From a virus, in the IMG/VR virus record IMGVR_UViG_3300028045_001344, positions 32,001 to 96,000 of that record: a stretch of 64,000 nucleotides of DNA. One strand, given 5' to 3'. The number at the start of each line of letters is the position of its first letter. The first letter of the stretch is position 1. A program made the position numbers and the translations under genes. Under the pieces are notes generated by a model that was not told the origin of the DNA, ran no database searches, and saw nothing but the letters and a program-made list of their open reading frames with translations. Below are positions 2,793 to 53,561 of the stretch, in pieces.

Positions 2793-4169
2793 TTAATTCG
2801 TCCCCTTTATTAGTTTTTTGTATTTGTCTAGCATAAATTTAACTTGTTCTTCATTTGAAAGTGCCGGTGATGATGCCGCATCATTTTCATATTTACCCAA
2901 CACCTTAATATCGACATTTGCGGGGTCCATAAAGATAGAGAACACCAAGCCGTCAGCACCATTTCTATTCTTGGCAATATAAATTCTTCCACCATTTGTT
3001 TGCTTATCCTCTGATGTTCTTGAAACAGAAAAGATAAAGTCCGCGATGAAGCATTTATTGAAAGCCTCAGATATTGCTTGCATGGTGATAATTTCTTGGT
3101 TGAGCCCTGTTCGGTTAGTTTGAGAAGCTGTCCACCCAACACAATTATTTTCTTGCATAAGTGCGCGGAGGTCTTCATAGATCGTTTCTAGTTCTTCTCT
3201 CTTTTCTTTACGCGCAGACAATGTGCGTAACAGATCCGCATAATCAACAATAATCATGTCTGGAATAGTGCCTTGTTGTTTAAGTTTTTCCAGATGAGCG
3301 CGAATTGTATTGGTGGTAGCTGTTTTCGTGGGATACTCTTTTATAATCAAGCTTCCATCTAAACCATCTAAAGTTTTCTTGATGTCCACTTTACGATCCT
3401 TGACTTCGTTCAAGCGAATTCCTGTGATACACGAATCATAACGACCAGCGATGACAGTATCACCCAACTCAAGCGTGTAATGCACCACGGTCATTCCGGC
3501 TTTCACGGCAGTCGCGCCAAGATGAACTAAGACCATTGACTTTCCCACACCAGTAGGAGCGATTACGACACCCAATTCTTTGCGACCACCACCACCCCCG
3601 GTGATCTGATCTACTTTTTCCCATCCCGTCGTGATTGTTTCGCGGGTACTAAGTTCAAATCTTTTTTCAAAATCTTTGATATAATCGTAACCAAAATCTG
3701 CATTTGCACCAGCCTTCAACGCATCATTTATGAGTACAGAAATCTCATCAAAAGAGCATTTTTGGAGGAGTGTAGACGATTTTATCATCGCCTCTCGTAA
3801 CTTCTGCTTACGGCAGAATTCCAAAGCGGTGTCTTTTACAAATTCGGCTGATTGTAATATGGTAATATCAGATAAGACATGAGCAAAATACTCTCTTATT
3901 TGTTTCTGAAGTGTTTCATTTTCGTCTTCTATTTGAGAACGAACAATCGTCTTCATTATTTCAGTTGATGGTTGGGTTCCGTATTTTGTTTTGTAGTTGA
4001 ATATTTTTTGAACAAAAACTTGCAGATGCTTGAATTCTAAAAACTCAACATCCAATACTTCTACCATGCGATCAGCAAAGACGCGATCATCTAATATAAG
4101 AAAGGCTAGTTTTTCCTGAAAGGATTTACCATATTTTGAAAATGAGGCGGGGTCGGTTTTTAAGGTCAT
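2793..4169 (-). CDS. dnaB: replicative DNA helicase (DnaB/gp41-like)
   Basis: Walker A APTGVGKS, YTLEL, IIVDYADLL, TASQTNR, IAKNRNG motifs. Confidence 0.92.
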   Translation of the reverse strand: MTLKTDPASFSKYGKSFQEKLAFLILDDRVFADRMVEVLDVEFLEFKHLQVFVQKIFNYKTKYGTQPSTEIMKTIVRSQIEDENETLQKQIREYFAHVLSDITILQSAEFVKDTALEFCRKQKLREAMIKSSTLLQKCSFDEISVLINDALKAGANADFGYDYIKDFEKRFELSTRETITTGWEKVDQITGGGGGRKELGVVIAPTGVGKSMVLVHLGATAVKAGMTVVHYTLELGDTVIAGRYDSCITGIRLNEVKDRKVDIKKTLDGLDGSLIIKEYPTKTATTNTIRAHLEKLKQQGTIPDMIIVDYADLLRTLSARKEKREELETIYEDLRALMQENNCVGWTASQTNRTGLNQEIITMQAISEAFNKCFIADFIFSVSRTSEDKQTNGGRIYIAKNRNGADGLVFSIFMDPANVDIKVLGKYENDAASSPALSNEEQVKFMLDKYKKLIKGTN

Positions 4170-4233: not shown

Positions 4234-5217
4234 TTAAGTGCCACGGAGTAAATAGTCTCGGTGGTCGGCAAGAAACGATCTAAATTTCTGAAATAATGGA
4301 TTCCAGTTGTATTCATGTATGCCATCAGTCGCCATCATTTTTAACACTTCGGTTCTATTGAGGGTAGGGGCAAACTGTTCTACTGTGTCTTTTATATGTA
4401 GTGAATTTTTAACAGAAATAGAGGGAGAATAAAGTTGCATTAATTTATAATTTAGTTCCACCTTTTTCTTCTCCTTTAAAATATCTTTATATAATTTGAG
4501 CCCAGTCTCATCACTTCTGCAATACTTAAACACCTCGTCGGGAGTATAAGATTTTTCTTCCCGCAAGAAACTTAATTTTTTAGATATTGTCTTCATGCCC
4601 GCGCCCTTTATGCCCGGTAAGTTATCAGACTTGTCACCATCAATGGCTCGGGCAAGCGCGAAATTGTTAGGATGAATATCAAACTCCTCAAGGATTCGAT
4701 TCTTGTTTAAGAAGATGTCCTTGATCGGTTTATACACCAGCGTCTTGTCGTCACACAGTTGATAAAAATCTTTGTCCATAGACACAATAATCTTTATGTC
4801 TTCTTTGAGTGAAGGCATATGACAAATGTATCCTATCACATCGTCAGCCTCAATGTCTTCTACCATCAATTGTGCGACGGGCATCTTGTTAAGATACTCA
4901 ATTGTGCGCTTCATTTGATCATAACGATTTTGTGTTTCTTCTAGAGCATCCATACCGCTATAGGCTCGGTTTAGTTTGAGTGGCTTGCGCCCTTCTTTGT
5001 ATTGCTTCGCCAAGGTTCTGCGCTTGGCACTACCACCTCCACCATCCCAAACAACAATTATCTTATCTGGATTTATCTCTCGTGCTGTCTTTTGTAAGGA
5101 CATCAAGAAACCTTTCGTTCCACCAATGGGTGATCCCGTCGCACTAATGCTAGGGTTCATAACATAGTTGCGAATGAATGTATTCATCGCGTCAATGATT
5201 AAGATTTTATTCGCCAT
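4234..5217 (-). CDS. 5'-3' exonuclease / flap endonuclease (T4 RNase H-like)
   Basis: IIDAMN, VVWDGG, YKEGR, EADDVIG, SMDKDFYQL, GDKSDNLPGIKGAG motifs. Confidence 0.92.
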   Translation of the reverse strand: MANKILIIDAMNTFIRNYVMNPSISATGSPIGGTKGFLMSLQKTAREINPDKIIVVWDGGGGSAKRRTLAKQYKEGRKPLKLNRAYSGMDALEETQNRYDQMKRTIEYLNKMPVAQLMVEDIEADDVIGYICHMPSLKEDIKIIVSMDKDFYQLCDDKTLVYKPIKDIFLNKNRILEEFDIHPNNFALARAIDGDKSDNLPGIKGAGMKTISKKLSFLREEKSYTPDEVFKYCRSDETGLKLYKDILKEKKKVELNYKLMQLYSPSISVKNSLHIKDTVEQFAPTLNRTEVLKMMATDGIHEYNWNPLFQKFRSFLADHRDYLLRGT

Positions 5218-5600
5218 CGCGCTTCGACCTTGTTGAAATTATCGGGGAAATGCTTCTTTAGAAACCTAAGCATCTGACCCGTGTTACGACTCACTGCTTG
5301 TACGTCAAGAGCAGAGTTCTCTGTATTATAAGAAAAAACCATCTGTTTGTTGAGAGTGAGGAAGGAGCCATCCATAAAATATAGCCTGATCATACTATGC
5401 TTGTCCCATAAATTTGGCGCAAATGGGCCGGGGCACAATTCTTTCACCTTATTTAGTAGATCTTTCTTCTCCTTCATTTCACGCCAAACTTCTTGCTCTA
5501 CTCTGCGCGTGTTATGTTCAAGGAGAGCATCCGTTTTCTCTATCCGTCGTTGCTTGGTTCTGTCATCGAGAACAAATTTTGCCCAACTAGGAATGGTCAT
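5199..5600 (-). CDS. hypothetical protein
   Basis: 133 aa ORF overlapping both neighbours in operon fashion. Confidence 0.6.
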   Translation of the reverse strand: MTIPSWAKFVLDDRTKQRRIEKTDALLEHNTRRVEQEVWREMKEKKDLLNKVKELCPGPFAPNLWDKHSMIRLYFMDGSFLTLNKQMVFSYNTENSALDVQAVSRNTGQMLRFLKKHFPDNFNKVEARWRIKS

Positions 5601-6723
5601 TTTGCTTTACCCCCTCAACATCATCACCATAAAAGTCTTCTGACTTGCCGGTCTTGGTTTCAAATTTACGAATAACTTCTTCATCCATAATATCATAAAC
5701 AAGTTTGGCAAACTTTTCGTCGGTCTGCATTAGCTTAGGGAAGGTTGCGCCTTGGAATTTCTTATCGTATCCATCAAGCGTAAACCACGCTCCACTATTC
5801 TTTAACTTGTCCGATGTTTTGATCGCAGTCAACAAGGATTCATCATTGAGGATACCAACATCCTCGCCTCCCCATAGAATTTTAAAGTTACAGATGCGAC
5901 CCTGTGTTCCAAACTTGGATTTCTCTAGCTTGGCTTTCACTTCGCTGCCGATTCTAAAACCTGCTTCATCTTCTACAAAGGTCTTCTTTCCTTTTAGACC
6001 CGTGAGCCATATTCTTAATGAATAGGCATAGATCATAGCCTTACCACCAGGAGTAAACCAGGGTTGCGAAAGCATCATCATTGGGTTAGAGACATTAATA
6101 TTTGTCTTGAGTTGGTTCAGGACCAACAAGGTTGATTGTGTTCTCGATAAGGACACCACCAATTTCTTCATACCCAAAGATAGAACGCGAGGCATTTGTG
6201 CCATAGAAGATTGGGGATTGAAATCCTTTTCCAGATCCGCACGACATGGAGTCATCGCGAGTGAGTCAATAATAAATAAGAAACGAGTGTCGGGATCACC
6301 AGCCATAACGGTTTCCATTGATTCCAATACCTGCTCAATATCATCAGGCTGGATTATGATAACACTATCCTCGCCATCTACAGTGCAACCAAGTTTCTCT
6401 AAAAACTCTTTGCTCATTGTAGATTCAGAATCAAAGTAGAGAACTTTAATATTCTTCTTCTGTGCTTCCCTCGCTACTTGTCCAGCCATATAAGACTTGC
6501 CTGAACTTTCTAAGCCAGCGATCTCGGTGCAGCGACCAACTGGGATACCTGCGAGTTGACCACGACAGGTAATGGAGTCGAGCCATCGTGAGCCTGTGGA
6601 GATCCAATCCTTTACATCAGCCGGATTCTCTTGATCGCCAGTAAACGCAATTGTTCTTCCCGCTTTTTTATTTATTAGTTTTAAAATATCTTTCGATGAT
6701 AAGTTTCCGTTGCTCATAATCAT
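5587..6723 (-). CDS. recA: RecA/UvsX recombinase (start probably 6723 rather than 6771)
   Basis: GLESSGKS Walker A, YFDSE, IIDSLA, LNQLK, TPGGKA. An AGGAGAG SD precedes the ATG at 6723, and the longer start runs through a terminator. Confidence 0.93.
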   Translation of the reverse strand: MIMSNGNLSSKDILKLINKKAGRTIAFTGDQENPADVKDWISTGSRWLDSITCRGQLAGIPVGRCTEIAGLESSGKSYMAGQVAREAQKKNIKVLYFDSESTMSKEFLEKLGCTVDGEDSVIIIQPDDIEQVLESMETVMAGDPDTRFLFIIDSLAMTPCRADLEKDFNPQSSMAQMPRVLSLGMKKLVVSLSRTQSTLLVLNQLKTNINVSNPMMMLSQPWFTPGGKAMIYAYSLRIWLTGLKGKKTFVEDEAGFRIGSEVKAKLEKSKFGTQGRICNFKILWGGEDVGILNDESLLTAIKTSDKLKNSGAWFTLDGYDKKFQGATFPKLMQTDEKFAKLVYDIMDEEVIRKFETKTGKSEDFYGDDVEGVKQNDHS

Positions 6724-28572: not shown

Positions 28573-30393
28573 TTAGCCAAAGAGATTTTCCACGACGACA
28601 AGACCGTACATATCAGGTCGAACCATATGCTTTCCGTAACGAGTCATTACACCCTTTCGTGGCGTAAAGTTCTCTGGATCGAAAATGGTTGGGGTGGTCT
28701 GTAGAGGCACATAAGGTGCATATACATATCCACTCTCAAGGAATCCGCTTCCTTTGCGACCAACAAGTAAGAGATTTCGTGGGAAGTATGGGTCAACATA
28801 CACATCCCACTTCTTACTAATCGAGCCCGTCTTCACAGCACCAGCAGTTCCGCGATTTTCATCTGCGGTTGTGTCAGCACGGAAGCCGTTTGTAAATTCA
28901 AGAATGTTCGCAACTTCAGGAGAAGTAACAATAAAGTTAGCTCCACCGCGAAGCGTCTTACGATGAATCTGTGCTGAAACGTCATTGACAGTCTCAAGCA
29001 AAGTCTCATACCATTCTGAAACAGTACCCGTGAAGGTGGGTGGCGCAGCAAGCGCAGCGCCAGTAATCCTATCCACAAAAACTCCTGGTCGTCTGGACCA
29101 GTGGAAAGTAGAAGCAGTCGCACCTTTGATAAGGTCTTCAAGGATTTCTTGATCAATTTCAAGAGCAATCGCTTCAGACAAAATCGAGGTAAGCTCAACT
29201 TCAGCATCCAAATTGTGATAAGCATTGATGTCCTGCTGTAGTTCTGGTGTCCATTTAGCACGAAGCTTTTTGGTCATCGCGGTGATAGAAACACTATCAA
29301 CTTTGATGTCAATTTCAGCAATCGCAGAACCAGAATTTGCCGTTCCGCAAGAATCTCCACCACCAGCAACGGTGCCAAGAGCTTCCAGATCCCAAACAGG
29401 CGCACCAACAATAGCTCCGGGTGGGCCAGCGTTAGCGAAATTATCAGCAATAACAAAACTAGCTGAAACACAAGCATTAAGCGCGGCTGTAGCTTGAGCC
29501 ACATCCGAACCTGAAACAACTACCAAGAGGTTGGCTGGAGCCACGCCTTTTGGATCTGTATAGTCAGGTTGCGTCAAACGACGGATTTGCAATTCACCCG
29601 TTTTATTGATGCCATTAATACGAGCACCAGTTGCGAGAGCCGGAAGCCCTACCGCACCACTGAGCAAGCAGATTGAAACATCATCTTGAACATTGAACTG
29701 CGTAAGCTGAGCTACGGCAATTTGACCAACAACCAAAGCGGCAGCGCCAGCCTCGTTGACGGCACCAAGATCAGGATCAAATCGAATAAGACGATCTCCC
29801 TCGTCGGTGGCTCGCGTTCCGACAACATTGTTCCATCCACCGAGCACGCCGCCGTCGCGTGTTGCGATTAGGGTCGGCACAGTGATCGAGTTTGAACCAG
29901 TCGTTGCGGCATATCCATTGGACAGATTATAAAATCCTTGTTCGTCCGCATTTGTTAAGGGTGGACCTGCTCCAAGCGTTACGCCATTGGCAATACCAGA
30001 CCCAGTAACACCACCACCATAGATAGATTCACATGCGTCATCTCCAAGTTTATCATTCGCTGTAGTAAAGTCGAGGAAGAAGATAAGACCACTCGGCAAG
30101 CTCATAGGCTGAACCGAGACAAGCTCATTCGCTACCAGTCCGCCGAATACACGACGAACGATTGGAAATGCAACTGCTGCAAATCCTTCAACATCACCAC
30201 TAGCCATGGTGGAAGCTTCACGAAGAAGTTCCTTGGCTTGGTTTTCTAGAAGACATGCCATACTGTTTTTGTTATGGTCGCCTTCAATTCCTTCTAAAAG
30301 TCCAGTGTTCTCCCATTTTGATAAGAGAGCATTGGCTTCACGCGAAAGATCACGATTAATGATTCCTTCGGTTAGTTTTTCAATAATACTCAT
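28573..30393 (-). CDS. major capsid protein (gp23-like)
   Basis: VSVQPMSLPSGLIFFLDF, KKLRAKWTPELQQDINAYH, EIDQEIL, YAPYVPL, GVMTRYG. Confidence 0.95.
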   Translation of the reverse strand: MSIIEKLTEGIINRDLSREANALLSKWENTGLLEGIEGDHNKNSMACLLENQAKELLREASTMASGDVEGFAAVAFPIVRRVFGGLVANELVSVQPMSLPSGLIFFLDFTTANDKLGDDACESIYGGGVTGSGIANGVTLGAGPPLTNADEQGFYNLSNGYAATTGSNSITVPTLIATRDGGVLGGWNNVVGTRATDEGDRLIRFDPDLGAVNEAGAAALVVGQIAVAQLTQFNVQDDVSICLLSGAVGLPALATGARINGINKTGELQIRRLTQPDYTDPKGVAPANLLVVVSGSDVAQATAALNACVSASFVIADNFANAGPPGAIVGAPVWDLEALGTVAGGGDSCGTANSGSAIAEIDIKVDSVSITAMTKKLRAKWTPELQQDINAYHNLDAEVELTSILSEAIALEIDQEILEDLIKGATASTFHWSRRPGVFVDRITGAALAAPPTFTGTVSEWYETLLETVNDVSAQIHRKTLRGGANFIVTSPEVANILEFTNGFRADTTADENRGTAGAVKTGSISKKWDVYVDPYFPRNLLLVGRKGSGFLESGYVYAPYVPLQTTPTIFDPENFTPRKGVMTRYGKHMVRPDMYGLVVVENLFG

Positions 30394-30408: not shown

Positions 30409-31623
30409 TTAAATAATGCCCGCAAGTCGCCTCAGTCTATCGACTTGATTTTGACCAGCGGGTTGTTTTTCTTTATTTGATTTCAATATAAGCGGATTGT
30501 TTTTATTCACTGCTTCATTCAATGTCTTCGGAGCAGTCTTGCTCTTGGACGAAAGATTTTCATTCAATGTATCATAAACAATCTTGGCTTCTTCTACTGA
30601 ACCAACTTTTGAAATTGCTTCGACAAGTTTTTCTTTTTGTCGCTCATTCAAGGAGTCGCTTTTCAGGATGCGATTCGTGTAGATTAATTTTGCGTTAGAA
30701 AAATTAACTTCTTCTAACTTCTTTGTTGCCTTTAGTGCAATACTCTTAAGATTATCAAAATCTTTTTTCTGCTTATTCAATTTAAGCTTCTGAGATTTAT
30801 TTTGCTCTTGCAACTTCTTTAATGCTTGGCGCAATTGTTCTTGCTCCTCTGCAAATTCTGTGTCTTGTTCTTGCGCTAAAGCAATATCAAGACCTCGTTC
30901 GTTTTGTCCCATAGTTGGGTGTGTATGAAAGATATCCCCGGAAGGAACATTCTTCATATCGACTACTAATGCCTCGACGATTTCATCAAGTAGTTCTTCG
31001 TCAAGTTCTTCGTTCTCATCAATTTCTTGTTCTCTCGAATCCTCAAAAATTTCAGGGGCGATTTTTTCAGCACCCTCGTTTTTGGGTTTGTCTTTCTTTT
31101 CTTCTTCTTTAGATTGTTTAATGGCTTTATCTCGCGATCCTTTCCATTCAGCTTCTTTAGATTCAACTTCGCCATCACCATCATAATCCTCGTAGGCATC
31201 TTCCTCATTCAGTGCTTGGGCAATTGCCTCAAGAAGATTGTCCTCGCTCACTTCAAAGAGTTCTTCTTCGTCGGCAGCAACTTCACCACCAAGATCCATT
31301 TCTTCTTCGCTCTCGGCTGCTTGTGCTGCCGCGACTATTTGATCTAGATCAAGAACCATTGGCTCTTCTTCTTCGGGGCACGGACACATGTTCTCGCCAT
31401 CGGTCGCAGCAATCGGCATTTGATCGGCGATGCCTGGTTCCGCATCAAGACCTTCCTCGTCTTCCATACCAAACATATCTTCCTCTTGTTCTAAAAGGGA
31501 TGTGACGGCTTCTTTGATTTCTCCTGAATACTTTTCGAGAACTTCTTGTTCTGCGTTTTTCATCGCCGCTTCTCGAAGTGCTTCGGCGTCAATGACGGCT
31601 TGATCTAACATAGTTGATGACAT
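30409..31623 (-). CDS. prohead core scaffolding protein (gp22-like)
   Basis: Highly acidic coiled-coil protein immediately upstream of MCP, ending RLRRLAGII. Confidence 0.75.
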   Translation of the reverse strand: MSSTMLDQAVIDAEALREAAMKNAEQEVLEKYSGEIKEAVTSLLEQEEDMFGMEDEEGLDAEPGIADQMPIAATDGENMCPCPEEEEPMVLDLDQIVAAAQAAESEEEMDLGGEVAADEEELFEVSEDNLLEAIAQALNEEDAYEDYDGDGEVESKEAEWKGSRDKAIKQSKEEEKKDKPKNEGAEKIAPEIFEDSREQEIDENEELDEELLDEIVEALVVDMKNVPSGDIFHTHPTMGQNERGLDIALAQEQDTEFAEEQEQLRQALKKLQEQNKSQKLKLNKQKKDFDNLKSIALKATKKLEEVNFSNAKLIYTNRILKSDSLNERQKEKLVEAISKVGSVEEAKIVYDTLNENLSSKSKTAPKTLNEAVNKNNPLILKSNKEKQPAGQNQVDRLRRLAGII

Positions 31624-36825: not shown

Positions 36826-37239
36826 TTATTCCGCTAAATGGGACCAGCCCCCAGTCATTTTTACTAGACCGTCAATATTTACACCAGCATCACTCGGGTC
36901 TTTATCCCGCAACGCACCATATTTATTGGATTGACCACCACCGCTTGACGGCATCGGTTTGGTTCCTTCAAAGATTCCATGTAGCCCAGTTGCTTTTTGT
37001 AGCGAGTCTTTCACTTCCTTGAGTTGATTCTTTGCTTCAATGAGGCTTTGGCTTTGTTGTTGTTTTTTCGGGGTTATGGGTTGGGCGATGTGTTGCATCT
37101 GTGGGGCTGCATTAACATTTCCTAATCCCTGAACTACTTCAGTTATAAGGCCCGCAAGAACACCTTCTTCAAAAATAGACTCACGGATACATTCTTTAAT
37201 GAGGGGCTTTAAGATTTCCTTCAACTCTGATTTTTTCAT
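36826..37239 (-). CDS. hypothetical protein (MKKSELKEILKPLIKE...)
   Basis: 137 aa ORF coupled to the upstream gene by an ATGA overlap. Confidence 0.65.
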   Translation of the reverse strand: MKKSELKEILKPLIKECIRESIFEEGVLAGLITEVVQGLGNVNAAPQMQHIAQPITPKKQQQSQSLIEAKNQLKEVKDSLQKATGLHGIFEGTKPMPSSGGGQSNKYGALRDKDPSDAGVNIDGLVKMTGGWSHLAE

Positions 37240-37552: not shown

Positions 37553-38545
37553 TCACATCATCTTCTTTCGATTATCAATCTCTTCTTTGATGATTTCTTG
37601 TAGTCTTTCTTTAGAAATTGACATAAGGTTGCGTGATTCTGCGACGGGAGGTTGACCAACGGGATCTTCTTCAGGTTTTCCCCAGGGAGGACTAACATCA
37701 ACATGTCCCTTCTCAAGAGCATTTACTGCGGCTGGAATATCAGGTTCATCGATTACTGGCATATCAGGTCTTGCTGGTGCCCAACTTGGAGTTGACATAT
37801 TAATGCCGCCAAGATTATTAACCATTTTTGTAACCGCAGACTCAACTGCATCTTCACCTTGTTTGCCTGTCCAATCTTGTAAGAGCTTCATTACTTGTTC
37901 CGGGGTTCGTCCTTGCCATCCCTTGAAGGTGTCTGGTACTGTGTCTTGACTGATTCCTCCCTTTGCCATTGATGTTAACATATCTCTAATAGGTTTTTCC
38001 TTAAATTGTTCAAAACCGCCCGAAGCTGGTTTCCCTTTCATCACTTGAAACTGACCCTTTGTCATCGCATTTAAAACCGCAACAAGTTGTTCACCTGGAA
38101 AGTCAACATCATAACCACCAACCGATTGAGATGGATCAACCATCGCTGTAGCAATCCATCTATGATGTCCATCCATGATATATTTATCACTACTAATGAA
38201 AGCGCCAAGATCGCCGCCCGGTTCCATTTTACTTGTAGGATCGATCATATGTAAAACAAATGTCATGGCTTTACCAATATTCATGCTAGATTGAGAAGGA
38301 CTTAAATCTTGAACTGCTGCCACTCCGCTTGGTTTGTAATCCACATTAATTTCGTCATCGGCAGGATCTTGATCAAACTTTGAATGACCATGAGTTACGG
38401 CAACTTCAGCCGCAGCGGGATCTACATCAGATAATTTCATCGGGAAGCGTGCTGGATCAAACTCGTCGGGGTTTGCTTTTTCTCCTAATAGATCTTCCGT
38501 TTCTTCTTTGATCATTCGTTCTAAATCTTCTCGTGATAGTTTCAT
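37553..38545 (-). CDS. ParB/Srx-like domain protein with terminal tag helices
   Basis: LSPSQ...FISSDKYIMDGHHRW motif. Confidence 0.65.
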   Translation of the reverse strand: MKLSREDLERMIKEETEDLLGEKANPDEFDPARFPMKLSDVDPAAAEVAVTHGHSKFDQDPADDEINVDYKPSGVAAVQDLSPSQSSMNIGKAMTFVLHMIDPTSKMEPGGDLGAFISSDKYIMDGHHRWIATAMVDPSQSVGGYDVDFPGEQLVAVLNAMTKGQFQVMKGKPASGGFEQFKEKPIRDMLTSMAKGGISQDTVPDTFKGWQGRTPEQVMKLLQDWTGKQGEDAVESAVTKMVNNLGGINMSTPSWAPARPDMPVIDEPDIPAAVNALEKGHVDVSPPWGKPEEDPVGQPPVAESRNLMSISKERLQEIIKEEIDNRKKMM

Positions 38546-38549
38546 CTCT

Positions 38550-39149
38550 TTAGTCTCCTATAATATCGTTCAGTATTCTATTGATTCGATCAGCCTTTGA
38601 ATATGGTTGTTTTATTCTTGATTCGGTAAGGCTCATAAATGCACCTTGCGTTGAGGGTTCAGAAACTATATCAAAACATATCAACTGAAGATCTTCTTCT
38701 ACAATCGTTTTCCCTTGGCTTTCGTGAACAGACCCCAAAGCCCGAGACGAAATCCCTAAAGTAACCCCGTCGTTTACTAGAGATTCTAAAATTTTTCCTG
38801 CTGGTGTAGATAATACTTTAATTTTTCCCTTCAAGTCTTTACCTTCCCACCACAAATCAGTAACCATGTGAGAAGCATTTTTAAGATTGACAACTGAATC
38901 TTCTGGATGGTCTAATTCTCCACAAGCCCGGTTCTCCTTGACTGTCTTCATATAGTTTTTGACTTCTCTTTCCAGAACTAGTTTAGGATAGACACGACCA
39001 TTACCGTTTTGCTCATCTACTCTCTGCATAATTCCTGATAAGAAAGTTGCGCCATTCTTAACTTGTATCTTTTCCGCCTCTGTTAATAAATCTTCACAGA
39101 CTCCGCCCGCGCACAATTCATAATATTCTCTAAGAAGGTACTTGCTCAT
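38550..39149 (-). CDS. prohead core protease (gp21-like)
   Basis: NGNGRVYP, GELDHP, ASH, LSTPAGKIL, GISSRALGS, FDIVSEPS. Confidence 0.93.
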   Translation of the reverse strand: MSKYLLREYYELCAGGVCEDLLTEAEKIQVKNGATFLSGIMQRVDEQNGNGRVYPKLVLEREVKNYMKTVKENRACGELDHPEDSVVNLKNASHMVTDLWWEGKDLKGKIKVLSTPAGKILESLVNDGVTLGISSRALGSVHESQGKTIVEEDLQLICFDIVSEPSTQGAFMSLTESRIKQPYSKADRINRILNDIIGD

Positions 39150-39153
39150 TTTA

Positions 39154-40362
39154 TTATCTCCCGTCTAATCCATTCACCGACAAGACCGCAACAAGCCCTG
39201 GTAAGTTCTCTTTGATATATACCCCAGAAAACAAGGTTTCGCACCTTCCACCGACATAAGACACGGCTGCGTCTAAGTGTTTGCTAATCTCTGGATCTGT
39301 TGCCATTTCCGGTGTAATAATTAGTAGCATCGTTCCTGTAACGGACTTGCCTTTAGGCATGGGACATGGAGAACGCTTAATACAATTTTGATAAATAGCT
39401 GCGCCAAGTTTAGGATCTGCTGGATTTGCTATCATAGTCGAGCCCAAAAACATTCTTCCCTCGGTAGCCAAGCAACGCCCAAGATCTTTTGAATCAAAGG
39501 TTTGAACATAAGACTTTTCCGAAGCTAGTTTTAAAACTTGATGAAACAACTTAGCAAATGTAGAATTCGCTACGGGATACATATTTAGGATACCAACCTT
39601 TCCGCGAAGCAATTGTGTCTGTCTCTCGTTATCAATAAGAATATGAGGATGTGGTGCTACATCATTAGCTAGGGAGAGCGCATTTTTAGAGATAGTGTGG
39701 TTAAGAGATTCTTGCGCCGTGGGCCAAGATATAATATAAACCACTTTACCTTCACCCTGCACCGAACTAAGATACCGCTCGAACACTTCATGAAGTTCTA
39801 CGCAGGAACTTCCGGTTCCTCCGCCTCCGCCAGCTAAAACAAAAATCCAATCCACTTTTCCAAGTTTGGTACGAATAGCGTCTTCAACAACCGCACTGTT
39901 TTCACTAAACACTTTCTTTCCATAAGCGACATTTTTGGCTACGCCATCAGCGTCAGGAATAAGAATTAAGTGGTCCGCGTCTACACCTTCCGGCTGATCC
40001 TTTTCAGTAGTATTGAGAAGTAGTGTTTTATTAAATCCTAAATCTAAAAAAGCTTTGGCTAGTTTTCCACCAGCACCACCAACACCAATAAAGGCACAGT
40101 TTAAAGCAGACACCGCTTCATTCTCGGGAAGTTGCTCATCATGCTGAATTGTGATTTCCTCACCATAGTGCTCAATAAACCCAAAGTCTTCGGCATCAAA
40201 AGTTTCAAAAGAGGTGCTAGTCACTGGCTCATCATTTGGTAAACTAAAAGCATCTGCTTCTGTGATTAATTCCTCTTTTACTTCTTCTTCCGGTTTTGTT
40301 TCTTCAATTTCACCAGCAGTAATTTCTTCGTCTACATCTGGTTCTTGCTCGTCGTCGATCAT
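39154..40362 (-). CDS. tubulin/FtsZ-family GTPase with acidic N-terminal extension
   Basis: FIGVGGAGGKLA, LLNTT, GVAKN...G, signature AGGGGGTGSS, LIDNE, N in H6, T7-like TFDSKD. Confidence 0.88.
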   Translation of the reverse strand: MIDDEQEPDVDEEITAGEIEETKPEEEVKEELITEADAFSLPNDEPVTSTSFETFDAEDFGFIEHYGEEITIQHDEQLPENEAVSALNCAFIGVGGAGGKLAKAFLDLGFNKTLLLNTTEKDQPEGVDADHLILIPDADGVAKNVAYGKKVFSENSAVVEDAIRTKLGKVDWIFVLAGGGGGTGSSCVELHEVFERYLSSVQGEGKVVYIISWPTAQESLNHTISKNALSLANDVAPHPHILIDNERQTQLLRGKVGILNMYPVANSTFAKLFHQVLKLASEKSYVQTFDSKDLGRCLATEGRMFLGSTMIANPADPKLGAAIYQNCIKRSPCPMPKGKSVTGTMLLIITPEMATDPEISKHLDAAVSYVGGRCETLFSGVYIKENLPGLVAVLSVNGLDGR

Positions 40363-46505: not shown

Positions 46506-46837
46506 TTTTCTTCTCTTCCTTCAACGTGTTGAATATAACATTTAAAGCAACATTTAAACTTTGCCATATATAAATCATCCCTTCCGTGAAAGGAATAAAT
46601 ATTACATACTGGGCAAGTGCGCTCTGATTCTTTTATAAATAGTTTCTTGGGCAACAAAACACCATCAACCTCCACCTTCTCTTTGGTCTTTTCGTTTCGG
46701 GATGCCTCTTTGATTTGAGATAGGTAATCTTTTTCTTTTTTTTGATCCCAATTATTTTTAGGATTCTGTATTGCTTCATCACCATACTTCTCTTGTATGG
46801 CTTTCTCAACTTTTATAAGATGATCGGGATCTTTCAT
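46481..46837 (-). CDS. hypothetical zinc-finger protein
   Basis: CPVC...CCFKC. Confidence 0.65.
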   Translation of the reverse strand: MKDPDHLIKVEKAIQEKYGDEAIQNPKNNWDQKKEKDYLSQIKEASRNEKTKEKVEVDGVLLPKKLFIKESERTCPVCNIYSFHGRDDLYMAKFKCCFKCYIQHVEGREEKWLKNQMS

Positions 46838-47301
46838 CTCTTTACTATTTCGCTAGCGGCGAAAAAGATTGCGATTGATGTAATCATTCCCACTGTTATT
46901 CCACCGCCAAACCACAGTATATCATAATCTCCAACATCAGTTGCAATTTTTTGTAAGCGCAAGATTTCCTCATCTTGAGCCGAGACAATGATTTTGTATT
47001 TCTTTTTCTCTATCTTGAGTTCGCTAGAAAGTAAATCATTGTCTCTCGTACACTTTGCTTGTAGTATGTCCGTTTCATATTTTACTTTTAGTTTGCACTC
47101 TTGTTCTGCTCGCGCTTTTTCTGCTAATAGTTTTGCAGTTGCTTCTATTGAGAATAGTGTTCCTGTAAATGGTGCGACATCACCTTCGTTTAGAAAAGTA
47201 AATTTCGCACTTGTGCTCGTGGTTGTTTGGGCGTTGGCTATGACCGACGAGGAAATAAAAATAATACTAATCAGTATTGCTATTGTTTTTTTTAGGTTCA
47301 T
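46834..47301 (-). CDS. secreted/membrane coiled-coil protein, spanin-like candidate
   Basis: N-terminal signal peptide (KK, hydrophobic core, ANA), coiled coil, C-terminal TM helix. Confidence 0.45.
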   Translation of the reverse strand: MNLKKTIAILISIIFISSSVIANAQTTTSTSAKFTFLNEGDVAPFTGTLFSIEATAKLLAEKARAEQECKLKVKYETDILQAKCTRDNDLLSSELKIEKKKYKIIVSAQDEEILRLQKIATDVGDYDILWFGGGITVGMITSIAIFFAASEIVKR

Positions 47302-47665
47302 ATTCAAATCCAAACTCTAGTGTAATTCTTTCCGCCATTTGATCGGGATCATCAGTCCACTCTTTTATGACAGACTTTACAAATTTCTTTTCTTTCTTGT
47401 CTAGTATCTTATTTTCTTTAGAATACTTTTCTTCAATTTTTTTAATGGCATTATCATATTCTTTATCGATCCACTCTTTCTCTTTCTTTTTATTTATCTC
47501 AGCCGCTTCGATTGCGTCTAGTTGTTTCTTGTGAGAGTCATCAGCGGCTTTGATAATCTCCTCAATCTTGCTTTCTTTAGAACGAAAAACTAAAGCGACT
47601 ATTATGAGAACAGGTATATACCAATACGACTTTAGGAAAGACCAGATTTTTTTAAGTGCGATCAT
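47267..47665 (-). CDS. N-terminally anchored coiled-coil protein, i-spanin-like candidate
   Basis: Single N-terminal TM (YWYIPVLIIVALVF) followed by a charged helix; overlaps the next gene. Confidence 0.45.
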   Translation of the reverse strand: MIALKKIWSFLKSYWYIPVLIIVALVFRSKESKIEEIIKAADDSHKKQLDAIEAAEINKKKEKEWIDKEYDNAIKKIEEKYSKENKILDKKEKKFVKSVIKEWTDDPDQMAERITLEFGFEYEPKKNNSNTD

Positions 47666-47684: not shown

Positions 47685-48296
47685 TCAGTCTTCGCCCTCA
47701 TAACCAGTCACAGTTCGACCATCATTTTGATTTTTAAGAAAATCCCGCAACTGATCTGTAACATCCCAATCATCAGGAATATCCCTCTCAAAGTTACCTT
47801 CGTCCTGCATTGTAGAGACAAGCCACCTAACAAACGCTTTTTCGATCTTATCAGATATGATCTCCGATACTGAATCGTCCATATCTAATTTTCCTAAATT
47901 CCCTTGGGGTCGTTGGCCATCGGGCACCTGATACATTCCCAGAACAAATTCAGAAACCTCATCGGAATTAGAAAATATTTCTTTTGCGGCTGCAACACCG
48001 GGAACAAAATTTGTCAAAATTCCTAAAACTTTTTTTCTATTTTTATATTCTAAGGTACACTTTAACAGAGCATGTAATTCACCAAATGTTTTAACATCCC
48101 CACTGGATTGTAGGGTAGATGGAACTGTCTTCGTACAATAATCATCCTTTAGTTTATCATCGGCTTTATCCCACCCTTTGCCAAATAAATCCCGAAGATT
48201 TTTGACCTTATCTAGTGCTCTCGCTGTACGACTGGGCGCTTCGGCAAGCTTGTCGGCTTCTAAATAAGAACGCCAATTTTCCATTAAGATTTTCAT
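47685..48296 (-). CDS. hypothetical protein with MKILMENWRSYL N-terminal tag
   Basis: ATGA-coupled start at 48296; tag shared with 52664..53503. Confidence 0.65.
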   Translation of the reverse strand: MKILMENWRSYLEADKLAEAPSRTARALDKVKNLRDLFGKGWDKADDKLKDDYCTKTVPSTLQSSGDVKTFGELHALLKCTLEYKNRKKVLGILTNFVPGVAAAKEIFSNSDEVSEFVLGMYQVPDGQRPQGNLGKLDMDDSVSEIISDKIEKAFVRWLVSTMQDEGNFERDIPDDWDVTDQLRDFLKNQNDGRTVTGYEGED

Positions 48297-48691
48297 TTGT
48301 TCTTCTTTTTGTTTTTTTCCGCCCACGCTATTCGAAATGCTGCGGGGCAATCATCTTTACCGCCGCATTCTTGATCCTTCAACGCCTTTACTTTGTCTTC
48401 CATTCCGGGTGGGGCTACTTCTTGGAGAGGGGTTGGTTGAAAACTATCAACAACATCATTAATGGCTGTCGTGATTTTCTCTCTTAGTTCTTTGGCATCC
48501 CTAGTGTCCAACATCTTAAACTTCAAACGAATTATTTTAGTGATCGCAGAATCCATACTCGTGCCTGGGACTGACTTTTTTTGCGGAGGGATTGGGGTGT
48601 GTCCGCTAGGAGAACCTGGGTCCATAAAGCCTGAATCCTCTTGGAGTTCTTCTTGAATAATTCTCTTAAGTTGTGACCTTGTGAGTTTCAT
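48293..48691 (-). CDS. hypothetical protein with MKLTRSQLKRIIQEE N-terminal tag
   Basis: 132 aa; tag shared with the neighbouring gene. Confidence 0.65.
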   Translation of the reverse strand: MKLTRSQLKRIIQEELQEDSGFMDPGSPSGHTPIPPQKKSVPGTSMDSAITKIIRLKFKMLDTRDAKELREKITTAINDVVDSFQPTPLQEVAPPGMEDKVKALKDQECGGKDDCPAAFRIAWAEKNKKKNK

Positions 48692-48694
48692 TTT

Positions 48695-48943
48695 TTATTC
48701 CTTGATATAATCATCCCTAGCGATCCGCACAGCCCAAAAGTCGCTTTGAGGTTTATACTCCACAACTAACTTATCTCGTTGCGGGTGCTTCTTAATGAAC
48801 TTCTTTGCATCCTTCTCTGTGTAAAACAATTTTAGTGTTACCAAGGCTGCGCTTCGGGCTGCTGCTGCCGAAATATCCGCCATACGAGACTCTGAGGATT
48901 CCTCTATAATAATTCTCTTAAGTTGTGATCTTGTAATTTTCAT
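48695..48943 (-). CDS. hypothetical protein with MKITRSQLKRIIIEE N-terminal tag
   Basis: ATG at 48943; first ~40 nt nearly identical to the start of 48293..48691. Confidence 0.6.
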   Translation of the reverse strand: MKITRSQLKRIIIEESSESRMADISAAAARSAALVTLKLFYTEKDAKKFIKKHPQRDKLVVEYKPQSDFWAVRIARDDYIKE

Positions 48944-48944
48944 T

Positions 48945-49133
48945 TTAGTTTCCGTGTTTCCAGTTAGTCGCAATATCTGCGATGCCCTGTATTCCTATGT
49001 AGCCCAACGCAATAGCAACCCATTGATCGCCACTGATCGGACCTAGATATAAAAAGAGAGTGGCTAAAGAGAAAACCGTAAATTTTCTCGATACCACTTT
49101 CTCTAAAGCTTTATCAACAAATGATGAGTTCAC
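48945..49133 (-). CDS. small membrane protein, holin candidate
   Basis: 62 aa with two hydrophobic helices (SRKFTVFSLATLFLYL; WVAIALGYIGIQGIAD). Confidence 0.5.
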   Translation of the reverse strand: MNSSFVDKALEKVVSRKFTVFSLATLFLYLGPISGDQWVAIALGYIGIQGIADIATNWKHGN

Positions 49134-49360
49134 TCTTTTCCTTTGTTAAATAAACTCAGTAAAACAATGAGCGATAACAAACCAACAAAACCACTTGATC
49201 CCATTGATTCAATTAATTTAACAACGTTGCCTACAACGCCCATTCCAAAAATACCTGCTCCATAAATTACTTCAACAAGAATTGCCAAAGCAAGCAAATT
49301 CATTACCAAACCTGTAAGTCCACTAACACCTTCATTAACTGTTTTTAAAATATCTTTCAT
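49130..49360 (-). CDS. small two-TM membrane protein
   Basis: AGGAGG SD before ATG at 49360; two hydrophobic helices. Confidence 0.55.
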   Translation of the reverse strand: MKDILKTVNEGVSGLTGLVMNLLALAILVEVIYGAGIFGMGVVGNVVKLIESMGSSGFVGLLSLIVLLSLFNKGKE

Positions 49361-49395
49361 ATTCACGTACCTCCTACGCAAATATAAATAGTTAG

Positions 49396-52300: not shown

Positions 52301-52539
52301 TGATTGCCTAAGATGATATATGTTGGGGCAATCTCCGCTAAATTATAAAGAAAGTCAGAAGTCATCTCCACATATTCAGGAGAAATCTGTGTCTTGGTGT
52401 GGCATATGTCGCCACAATGAACAATATAATCCACCTTCTCTTTTCGGAGAGTTTCATATATTTTATTAAATATAATCTTATATTCGGTGTGATATTTGAG
52501 ATTGCGAATATGGGTATCCGCGATGTGAGCAAACTTCAT
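49396..52539 (-). CDS. fused Mre11/SbcD nuclease - Rad50/SbcC ATPase (gp47-gp46 fusion)
   Basis: N-terminal HIADTH, GDICH, GNHD, LGDIH; then GRNFSGKSS Walker A, coiled coil, SGAEK signature, FILDEPG Walker B, ISH. Confidence 0.92.
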   Translation of the reverse strand: MKFAHIADTHIRNLKYHTEYKIIFNKIYETLRKEKVDYIVHCGDICHTKTQISPEYVEMTSDFLYNLAEIAPTYIILGNHDGNLRNTSRQDAITPIVKSLNHSNLHLLKNSCEVDMGHEFTLNVLSVFDEENWKEPSNPDQINIALYHGSISGCQTDIGWKMDIGEHDISIFDKFDYAMLGDIHLTNQIMDKAGRVRYAGSTIQQNHGEGTCKGFLIWDIESKEDFTVRPVTLTNPKPFISLPLTTDGKVPETSVPEGARLRLVVENSISAIALKKAVDVAKKRHKPESITVVNKSTFTNGVEIGDSFQKENLRDLVVQEKLIGEYLEDYKIDEALEKKIRDLNKKYKQIVENNDETYRNVDFEILELEWSNLFNYGEDNRIDFTNYSGITGIYGRNFSGKSSIVDSLLYTIYNSISKNSRKNLNIINNNKTEGFGQVKIRRGNKVYTIRRESSKYLKRLKGAETVEAKTVVDFKSWDIATEKEESLNGLTRSDTDKNIMKYFGSLDDFLITSMSSQLGALAFINEGSTRRKEILAKFLDLEIFDKKFKTAKEDAADIKSEIKVLDAVDYDEDIRIAHKDLLDNEAATMKRKNSCEILKKEAVVLKDQISDLEDKIQSAPTEIIDILNIRNSISQSEKRLLLYEKDIIHKTDENIKNKNKITKANDFIKSFDEDFLFSQKRKYLELEKELVNITLDLKASKTELSQFETRAKLLKEVPCGSEFSHCKFIRDAYEAKNKIPLVQIGQQTKQEESQSIQVEMNSLEIDNVESHLAKFEDLLKLKKDLENQIPTDELLIENLSSKKLIIEHEIRELQEKEKFYDDNKEVIEDLEGIVKDKNLKISVLRKCGINLEECESELLRLYKLHGFSEHRIQNLEVEKTKCENLKNDYEAHDLYMRCMHPNGIAYNIIKKSLPTINNEISKILANVVDFQVLFETDDNRLDIYIQQPDRDPSPLEMASGAEKTVAAMAIRLAFTNISSLPKSQLFILDEPGTALDAERMEGFVRILDITTSIFKTVILISHLDNLKDAADSIITIEKKDGYANVTA

Positions 52540-52547
52540 TACTTACC

Positions 52548-52575
52548 ATTATACCAGGAGATATGGTTAAGTCAA
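52548..52575 (-). promoter_or_regulatory. sigma70-type promoter (TTGACT-N16-TATAAT, TGn extension), probably leaderless
   Basis: Consensus boxes; the Mre11-Rad50 ATG lies 8 nt after the -10 box with no SD. Confidence 0.65.
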
Positions 52576-52598
52576 GAGAAAGTTTTGATTTAGTTAAT

Positions 52599-53561
52599 TT
52601 CATTTGTTTCTCCTATTAAAACGAAAGTTTCTCCAATAAATAGTTGTTTAGAGAAGTAAAACACTACCCTTTATATAACTTATCAAAAAGGTTACTACCA
52701 CCATCGTAAAGCATTTCTTCTATAGTGTTTACAAGTTCTTCTGGTGTTGCATATGGGGAGCCACCTGAATATGCGCGATTGATAAATTCTTTTATAGAAG
52801 TTCTTGCTTTTTTTTGTAGCACACGAACTGGGGTGGCTGAAGACTTTGTAGAATAAACATAGTTGGATGCGGGGTCGGCTTTTCCTTTTCCCGTTTCGGG
52901 ATGTATATAACAATCATCTCCTTTCGGTTTTGTTTGTGGATCGTCTATATCGTCAAATTTTCTAGCTTTAATTTTTATTCCCGTCGCTCCGGTTCCTCTT
53001 GCAAGCCACTGTTTGTAGATATTTTGAGCGGGTTTTGAAAGAGCAAACCTATCCGCCATTAATCCCCCCGCTACTGACTTAGTATAAAGAAGTGCCGTAT
53101 CATACAGAAGTGGACCATACCCATTTCTTGCCGCGCTTCTCTTGATTGTAAATATTTTCTTACCAGCCGCAAAACACGGCACACCGCGTTCAGCCCATAT
53201 CTCCACATCGATGATTCCCTTAATGCTTTGAGAAATCTTTTTTTGGACTGTCTTATTTTCAAGTGGATCATTTTTCCGATTTTGTCGATGGAACATAAAC
53301 TGATCTTGCTCATCCCACTCGTCGAAATCACTAGGTTTGGGTTTCAATTTATTTTTTCCTATCGAATTTATAAACTCCTCTGTGTCAAAGAGTAACAAAT
53401 ACTTACCGTCCCTACTTGAGTTAATAAGCATACCCAAATTCGTAGTGTCGGTGACAGCTTCCTCGTTCAAATACTCACGCCAGTTTTCCATTAAAAGCTT
53501 CATTTGTTTCTCTGATTAAAACGAAAGTTTCTCCAATAAATAGTTGTCTAAAGAAACAAAA
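52599..53561. repeat. ~63 bp imperfect direct repeat (52599-52661 and 53499-53561) flanking a single gene
   Basis: 14 bp and 33 bp identical blocks exactly 900 bp apart; the repeat comprises the primase 3' end, ACTATTTA motif, RBS and ATG. Confidence 0.9.
52664..53503 (-). CDS. tagged hypothetical protein (MKLLMENWREYLNEE) with possible GNAT-like fold
   Basis: SAARNGYGPLLYD...LMADRFALSKPAQNIYKQW resembles GNAT motifs A/B. Confidence 0.55.
   Translation of the reverse strand: MKLLMENWREYLNEEAVTDTTNLGMLINSSRDGKYLLLFDTEEFINSIGKNKLKPKPSDFDEWDEQDQFMFHRQNRKNDPLENKTVQKKISQSIKGIIDVEIWAERGVPCFAAGKKIFTIKRSAARNGYGPLLYDTALLYTKSVAGGLMADRFALSKPAQNIYKQWLARGTGATGIKIKARKFDDIDDPQTKPKGDDCYIHPETGKGKADPASNYVYSTKSSATPVRVLQKKARTSIKEFINRAYSGGSPYATPEELVNTIEEMLYDGGSNLFDKLYKG

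Follow-up and report, generated by a model that had tools for sequence, protein, structure and literature searches.

Interchangeable N-terminal leaders on unrelated proteins of an uncultured marine T4-like phage: candidate capsid-targeting propeptides

Why do unrelated proteins of one phage begin with the same few residues? The question is posed by three adjacent genes at positions 47685–48943 of a 64,000-nucleotide (nt) stretch of viral DNA (hereafter the window; bases 32001–96000 of IMG/VR record IMGVR_UViG_3300028045_001344, a single contig of 151,553 bp with a CheckV completeness of 83%). The proteins encoded there, and others in the same genome, carry short N-terminal leaders, or tags, of two sequence classes. 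These tags are modular and interchangeable, end in a protease-type motif, occur together with an S77-family prohead protease, and are found in late-like transcription units and in the head module. The favoured reading, at a probability of about 0.6, is that the leaders are capsid-targeting propeptides in the style of phage T4, non-homologous to the T4 capsid targeting sequence (CTS) and borne by effectors that would be delivered from the head.

In outline, the tagged genes would be transcribed together with the structural genes, and the N-terminal helix of each product (14–15 residues in class 2; 15–23 in class 1) would dock the protein into the prohead core or the inner shell. A gp21-type protease (encoded at 38550–39149) would cut after the Glu of the terminal [LIVM]xE, leaving the mature cargo free inside the head. 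At infection the cargo would exit with the DNA and act early on the host.

The source is assigned to a distant, uncultured marine T4-like phage, whose large terminase has its best cultured match in Flavobacterium phage immuto (44.6% identical). Terminases of five class-2-bearing relatives are 57–63% identical to that of the window, and on this measure the phage and these relatives form a single uncultured clade. Nearly all genes of the contig are coded on the minus strand, as are all genes and promoter-like motifs located in this genome below; coordinates are those of the window unless marked as genome. Relatives were sampled in IMG/VR with one degenerate DNA pattern per leader (at least 118 and at least 119 stretches matched), and the matches gave at least 206 class-2 and at least 194 class-1 open reading frames (ORFs), nearly all with the tag at the ORF start and often in tandem.

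Profile hidden Markov models (HMMs) of both classes, a check proposed in the first-pass annotation of the window, were trained on the relatives alone and scanned against the six-frame translation of the 151.5-kb genome. They recovered 11 class-2 tags (MKLLxENWRxYLxE; 23.5–33.6 bits, next best match 7.4 bits), including those at 48296 and 53503, and three strong class-1 tags (MKITKSQLKQIIKEE type; 28.7–36.2 bits) at 48691, 48943 and genome 2249. All lie on the coding strand at ORF starts, with a clear score gap above noise. A class-2 regular expression likewise gave 11 matches in the genome, all at ORF starts and none internal, and the reversed-pattern control gave no match in five genomes. The three focal genes encode an 82-aa protein with class-1 leader MKITRSQLKRIIIEE (48695–48943; 28.7 bits), a 132-aa protein in which class-1 leader MKLTRSQLKRIIQEE is followed by a variable linker and by a conserved body with CGGKDDCP at its end (48293–48691; 30.1 bits), and a 203-aa protein in which a variable linker separates class-2 leader MKILMENWRSYLE from a conserved helical body (47685–48296; 23.5 bits). 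A 279-aa protein elsewhere in the window carries class-2 leader MKLLMENWREYLNEE (52664–53503; 29.3 bits). Outside the window, a tandem array at genome 1965–8816 holds nine further class-2 genes and one class-1 gene. The first array gene (genome 8747–8816) has an in-frame upstream extension ending ...ELTDEDLEQVVGG, which resembles a double-glycine leader; a GGAGGA ribosome-binding site (RBS) lies 9 nt 5′ of the tag ATG, which makes the tag the probable true start.

All peptides quoted in the first-pass annotation were found at the minus-strand ORF starts given there, and both of its class-2 examples (48296 and 53503) are among the 11 HMM matches. Its number of tags was too low, as ten more tagged genes sit in the array. 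Its six class-1 examples fared unevenly. Those at 48691 and 48943 stood. The one at 38545 scores 10.1 bits at its N-terminus, and reaches 33–40 against class 1 in an ungapped all-vs-all comparison of N-termini (mean −12.5, standard deviation 9.4); on that comparison, which brought out no third leader class, it is a divergent class-1 member. The repeat of the tag reported at the C-terminus of the same protein was recovered (SKERLQEIIKEE, 17.1 bits), and the remnant at 52603 reaches 10.0 bits. The other two were dropped: 37239, at 3.8 bits, is at the level of noise, and 282 went undetected by the class-1 HMM.

The bodies behind the tags are unrelated, as had been claimed. When 17 tagged proteins of this genome were compared without their first 18 residues, only the body of the 279-aa protein and that of a paralogous array gene (genome 2246–2851) matched (E 8e-13). 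Among the matches listed from relatives, the class-2 ORFs of 60 aa or longer number 201 and group by sequence into 96 families, whose representatives are assigned by Pfam to NUDIX, protein kinase, GNAT, zeta-toxin/AAA_33, ART-PolyVal, HD_4 and GDSL lipase, and further to transglutaminase-like, 2H phosphoesterase, nucleotidyltransferase and DUF192 families. For the three focal proteins, Pfam and PHROGs gave no match. The ESM Atlas gave nothing informative on the 203-aa protein, and its AlphaFold2 (AF2) model is of low confidence (predicted local distance difference test, pLDDT, 55), too poor for a fold search.

Judged by their codons, the tags are under selection at the peptide level: within this genome the codon chosen differs in 46% of same-residue pairs, and the tags are only 71% identical as DNA. 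Fourteen homologous clusters of the 203-aa protein retain the leader. The 132-aa protein has 40 homologous clusters, and the 16 that were aligned show a conserved leader and body joined by an indel-rich linker. In orthologues of both proteins (42–90% identical) the leader is kept and the adjoining segment varies in sequence and length; in the 203-aa family comparison, tags are kept among orthologues 42–74% identical.

The boundary of the tag coincides with a candidate cleavage motif. Across at least 217 unique class-2 N-termini, Glu14 carries 3.1 bits of information, residue 15 carries 0.65 and later residues at most 0.3; the class-2 search pattern itself fixed Glu14, and the boundary was recounted on 80 class-2 tags of relatives beyond the constraint of the pattern. 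In 67 of these 80 (84%), [LIVM]xE occupies residues 12–14, against a background of 1.9% per position, and in most of the 13 exceptions it is displaced by one to three residues. The (I/L/V)xE ending described in the first-pass annotation is likewise present in 10 of the 11 class-2 tags of this genome. In class 1 (at least 224 N-termini), information content falls after Glu15/Leu16, and a secondary [LIVM]xE peak appears at residues 21–22.

Directly 3′ of the protease gene lies a 330-aa protein (37553–38545) made up of a divergent class-1 leader, a body with a DGHHRW motif, a disordered linker and the class-1-like C-terminal helix already mentioned. Its family numbers 646 clusters. Among the best 120 of these, 25 start with about 23 residues of class-1 leader, which closes in ...[LM]xE[EK], and 35 with a 15-residue class-2 leader, which closes in ...[VIL]xE[EK]; both kinds fuse to the body at the identical point, its first residue being the Ala of A[DN]P. 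The C-termini of the same 120 vary too, with a class-1-like helix in 23 and ...ERWRKLAGLL in 10 others. A class-2-tagged family member is also present on a 179-kb NCBI/Logan contig, and a second body family (NFFDNMRAK...) is likewise seen with either leader type. On these alignments the two leader classes are interchangeable, and such natural swaps on one body support the earlier suggestion that new cargo is acquired by fusion to a tag. The AF2 model of the 330-aa protein (mean pLDDT 88) has a confident globular body, helices at residues 5–20 and 312–329, and a disordered segment at 297–308. Both terminal helices are joined to the body by low-confidence linkers, so both tag-like segments appear to be appendages. 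The body has no Pfam match and no sequence match in the PDB. Foldseek places ParB-N and Atu1540 at the top, both weak (E ~0.01, probability 0.7–0.8), and VIA gives a weak match to sulfiredoxin over residues 69–161 (Z 4.3); the DGHHRW motif agrees with these ParB-N/sulfiredoxin-like matches, none of which is decisive for the fold.

The protease itself (199 aa, 38550–39149) belongs to the T4 gp21 family, Peptidase_S77 (PF03420, E 4e-30, 105 bits against a curated cut-off of 27; phrog_207, E 2e-53), and its gene is placed between the portal and capsid genes. It is 34% identical to T4 gp21. Aligned with gp21 and relatives, its His81, Ser134/135 and Asp160 are invariant, and an N-terminal LLTE is conserved within the clade. 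The major capsid protein (Gp23 family, 606 aa, 28573–30393; PF07068, E 3e-70) has an N-terminal propeptide with conserved LLE34-G and LRE59-A sites. A MAFFT alignment with T4 gp23 sets LLRE59|A opposite the maturation site FLTE65|A and GLLE34-G opposite PLLE18-G; a BLAST local alignment instead pairs capsid IEGDH (36–40) with T4 IGGDH, which puts LLE34 at the mature boundary. Either alignment leaves a conserved LxE in place, and the specificity of the protease is probably T4-like. S77 is encoded on each of the 14 large tag-bearing contigs tested, six of which are rated at least 90% complete. It is also encoded on 12 of 39 tag-bearing fragments (11–68% complete), against 14.5 expected from their completeness at one copy per genome, and on two of ten other mid-sized contigs (20–27% complete). 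No complete small genome was found among the tag-bearing contigs.

Transcription of the tagged genes was approached through promoter-like motifs. The T4 late promoter TATAAATA is not enriched in the genome (7 vs 12 by strand) and was replaced by a de novo motif, CTATTTA(T), as the candidate late promoter. This motif has a strand bias of 29:3 in the genome (15:1 for ACTATTTAT) and sits 13–53 nt 5′ of the sheath, scaffold-like and other structural genes. In the head-module loci of eight relatives the bias is 34:1, and the motif is kept 5′ of an orthologous 135–144-aa structural gene. One copy (49385–49391) lies 24 nt 5′ of the gene at 49360, from which a gap-free run leads through the focal genes at 48943, 48691 and 48296 and on to the terminase and portal. 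Another (53537–53543) lies 33 nt 5′ of the class-2 gene at 53503, within a 49-nt promoter/RBS cassette. At genome 9039 the motif stands directly past a strong terminator (9095–9070), the end of an upstream unit that has a sigma-70-like promoter of its own, and ahead of the class-2 array. One relative (G005) has the identical order of terminator, motif and array, and in another (G002) the motif is directly 5′ of a class-2 gene.

How far does the parallel with known systems go? In T4, the CTS is carried by IPI, IPII, IPIII and Alt and is removed by the gp21 prohead protease (PMC9026906, PMC5694885, PMC3012670). CTS peptides are 10–19 residues long, and gp21 cuts after Glu, e.g. at ITE-6 and LTE-619 of Alt; gp21 itself carries LIE-9 (PMC5694885, PMC9026906). 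An Asp in place of the Glu at the T4 cleavage position stops processing and leaves targeting intact (PMC9026906). Both systems have a short N-terminal peptide (10–20 residues) on unrelated, non-essential proteins, some of them in variable clusters, and in both the last residue of the peptide is the Glu of an (L/I)xE context. The phage also shares with T4 an S77 protease, a Gp23 capsid protein and a T4-like portal and terminase. An ADP-ribosyltransferase (ART)-type domain, as in Alt, is found among the cargo, and LTE-619 of Alt is a precedent for C-terminal processing. The differences are those of diversity and scale: two distinct, interchangeable leader classes as against one in T4, at least 96 class-2 body families with up to 11 class-2 genes per genome, and tagged cargo of up to about 840 aa. 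Moreover, the T4 leader MKTYQEFIAE is located twice in the T4 genome (NC_000866) as identical DNA (ipII and ipIII), whereas the leaders here differ at synonymous sites. The function, proven in T4, is a predicted one here.

In phiKZ-like giant phages (SPN3US, phiKZ), ejection or inner-body proteins have long propeptides cut by the S80 prohead protease (PMC5694885). There too, a gp21-related protease processes head-internal proteins, cutting behind the Glu of a short motif, and the propeptides are thought to target the prohead. Unlike the present leaders, they are mostly longer than 100 residues and include no shared portable tag, their motifs are S/A/G-x-E, and the protease is S80, not S77. A third comparison is with the polyvalent proteins of phages and conjugative elements, whose proposed role is to enter with the DNA and counter host defences (PMC5512222). 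Domains overlap (ART-PolyVal, possibly ParB-like, kinases, nucleotidyltransferases) and the proposed delivery role is the same, but polyvalent proteins fuse 2–15 domains into one giant polypeptide, whereas the present cargo consists of separate small proteins, each with its address peptide. No multi-domain chain was evident in the Pfam tally of the 96 class-2 representatives, and most tagged ORFs are of 60–400 aa.

For the T4-like capsid-targeting system proposed at first pass, each prediction testable at sequence level held, and two class-1 examples fell away as described. Several points weigh against the favoured reading. Docking, cleavage, retention in the head and injection of the tagged proteins are predicted from sequence. 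The leaders have no sequence similarity to MKTYQEFIAE beyond the Met-Lys start and the terminal xE, and their helical amphipathicity (hydrophobic moment) shows no clear excess over shuffled controls. The class-1-like C-terminal helix of the 330-aa protein would survive a cut after its own Glu, so that copy at least may act differently. To our knowledge, S77 is encoded in every T4-like phage; since the tags are limited to one T4-like lineage, the co-occurrence of tag and protease does not discriminate. CTATTTA(T) is a candidate late promoter by virtue of its position. Tagged ORFs of relatives have the motif within 100 nt about as often as other ORFs (12% vs 11%, 7% vs 7%); such a lack of gene-by-gene enrichment is as expected of genes inside operons. 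A DNA-pattern scan of five cultured T4-like marine phages (immuto, P-SSM2, HTVC008M, Syn9, Mel-JY01) found neither tag class, which makes the tags a property of this lineage and not of every S77 phage. Among GenBank phages, tblastn with a 24-aa tag and with the 279-aa tagged protein gave no match, and with the 330-aa family it gave two weak matches only, both uncultured megaphage records, and no tag-bearing record. A full-text literature search for the tag peptides likewise found no paper, among those searched, containing or describing the leaders.

The alternative that survives best, unlikely as it is, holds that the leaders dock to a hub other than the capsid, such as a host complex, a phage chaperonin, the membrane or a degradation machine, and that the terminal xE is structural and remains uncut. 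It draws on the fact that head association of the tagged proteins is itself a prediction, on the presence of a GroEL-like protein in the genome, and on other phages in which some such enzymes are ordinary early proteins. It leaves unexplained the fixed [LIVM]xE boundary, which in most of the 13 exceptions is displaced by 1–3 residues and not lost, the tagged gene conserved beside the protease gene, and the late-like promoters that follow terminators. Nor does it account for the way in which a class-1-like helix and a scaffold-type motif alternate at the C-terminus of the 330-aa family. The leaders lack the hydrophobic core typical of secretion signals, and a secretion signal was rejected on this ground.

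A variant of head targeting, quite unlikely, is that the leaders copy assembly motifs of the head itself and provide two separate docking routes, the cargo binding the partner of the scaffold (the inner capsid surface) and not the core. The class-2 segment LLMENWRKYL has been likened to the C-termini ERWRKLAGL and NRWAKLAGI of scaffold-position proteins in this lineage. The window encodes a scaffold-like acidic protein with the C-terminus ...RLRRLAGII (30409–31623), assigned from its position just 5′ of the capsid gene and its composition, and this scaffold-type motif is common to the window protein and to the scaffold-position proteins of two relatives and of Flavobacterium phage immuto. In the 330-aa family it is the motif (...ERWRKLAGLL) that alternates with the class-1-like helix at the C-terminus. 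The tag HMM scores neither the capsid propeptide segment nor the scaffold C-terminal motif, and the resemblance is suggestive only. Two loose likenesses were noted: class-2 leader LLMENWRKYLNE and capsid propeptide segment LLSKWENTGLLE have equal spacing from Leu-Leu to LxE, with the Trp off by one, and the class-2 leader recalls the RW.KLAG(I/L) C-termini of scaffold-position proteins (window 30409–30440; L253, L255, L244). In the head module of a further relative (G004, L251), a 182-aa protein (3378–3926) has a class-2-like tag and the class-1-like C-terminus SDIREIIKEEY, and a 356-aa protein (4881–5951) combines TWRTFLNE in its interior with RRWHQLAGI, of scaffold type, at its C-terminus. 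Head-module proteins seem to have had their terminal motifs shuffled.

It is improbable that the leaders instead recruit assembly or scaffold accessories to the prohead core and that these, like T4 gp67, gp68 and gp22, undergo degradation and expulsion as the head matures. Many class-1 proteins are indeed small (70–200 aa) and acidic, their leaders often have a second [LM]xE at residues 21–22, an internal PLQE site is invariant in the 132-aa family, and a loosely similar N-terminus stands on a conserved head-module protein at 37239. Among the cargo bodies, however, are many intact enzymes of the kinds that manipulate hosts (ART, kinases, NUDIX, GNAT), and gene sets vary strongly among relatives, from 1 to 11 class-2 genes per genome, unlike core assembly parts. 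The head-module protein (about 135 aa, 36826–37239; N-terminus MKKSELKEILKPLIKE..., class-1 HMM 3.8 bits) has orthologues with the identical type of N-terminus, 3′ of the protease gene in 8/8 relatives, which marks it as a head-module component and not as the bearer of a portable tag. The PLQE site of the 132-aa family lies within an invariant P-T-P-L-Q-E-x-A-P-P-G (residues about 86–96), a second candidate LxE cleavage site; a cut there would free a Cys-rich C-terminal peptide of about 40 residues.

That the shared starts are DNA cassettes spread by recombination, or mark one fast-diverging paralogous family, with a functionless peptide in either case, is scarcely credible: a 49-nt promoter/RBS cassette is duplicated on either side of the 279-aa gene and tagged genes do stand in tandem arrays, but cassette identity ends at ATGAA, before the tag, the tags differ at 46% of synonymous opportunities (71% DNA identity) and persist over orthologues 42–74% identical, and the bodies have unrelated Pfam folds. 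The DNA-level cassette was accordingly rejected on the codon data, which largely refute it, and the single diverged family on the unrelated folds.

If the leaders are capsid-targeting propeptides, any protein that bears one is predicted to be in the virion and to be delivered with the DNA. Hundreds of 'hypothetical' families in abundant uncultured ocean phages would become defined candidates for injected host-takeover or anti-defence proteins, and the T4 CTS principle would be widespread, re-invented with different peptides. The leaders would also provide short new tags by which foreign proteins could be packaged into phage heads. Should the leaders be copies of head motifs, reading them would give a sequence-only catalogue of injected proteins in a large uncultured marine phage lineage.

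Some neighbouring features deserve mention. The cassette of about 50 nt (ACAACTATTTATTGGAGAAACTTTCGTTTTAAT..GAGAAACAAATGAA) that flanks the 279-aa class-2 gene (52590–52643 and 53490–53543) is nearly identical in its two copies. The second copy belongs to a segment (52478–52643) with a 41-codon remnant starting MKLTKSKL, which is overrun by a strong sigma-70-like promoter (52548–52575, 11/12 positions) serving a 1047-aa gene. The duplication may be a recombination scar left by insertion or replacement of a cassette.

Four small membrane-type proteins (46834–47665 and 48945–49381) flank the three focal tagged genes. Two, of 62–83 aa, have hydrophobic helices, one has an N-terminal transmembrane (TM) segment and a coiled coil, and the fourth has a signal-like N-terminus and a C-terminal TM segment; they may form a lysis or membrane cassette of the late-like run. 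Between the portal-side genes and the protease gene, a 402-aa protein (39154–40362) has a very acidic N-terminus that includes ELITE-A, and gives a sub-threshold match to Tubulin/FtsZ GTPase (PF00091, E 2.4e-6, 28 bits against a cut-off of 33; GVGGAGGK motif). No gene occupies this position in the head modules of 8/8 relatives, so it looks like a lineage-specific insertion. The GroEL-like protein mentioned above (524 aa, genome 11359–12933) is seemingly encoded, as judged from its N-terminal sequence, and a 121-aa protein (292–657) is possibly GroES-like on the same basis. Outside the window, a single ORF of 3847 aa (genome 97914–109457) lies among tail/baseplate-side genes.

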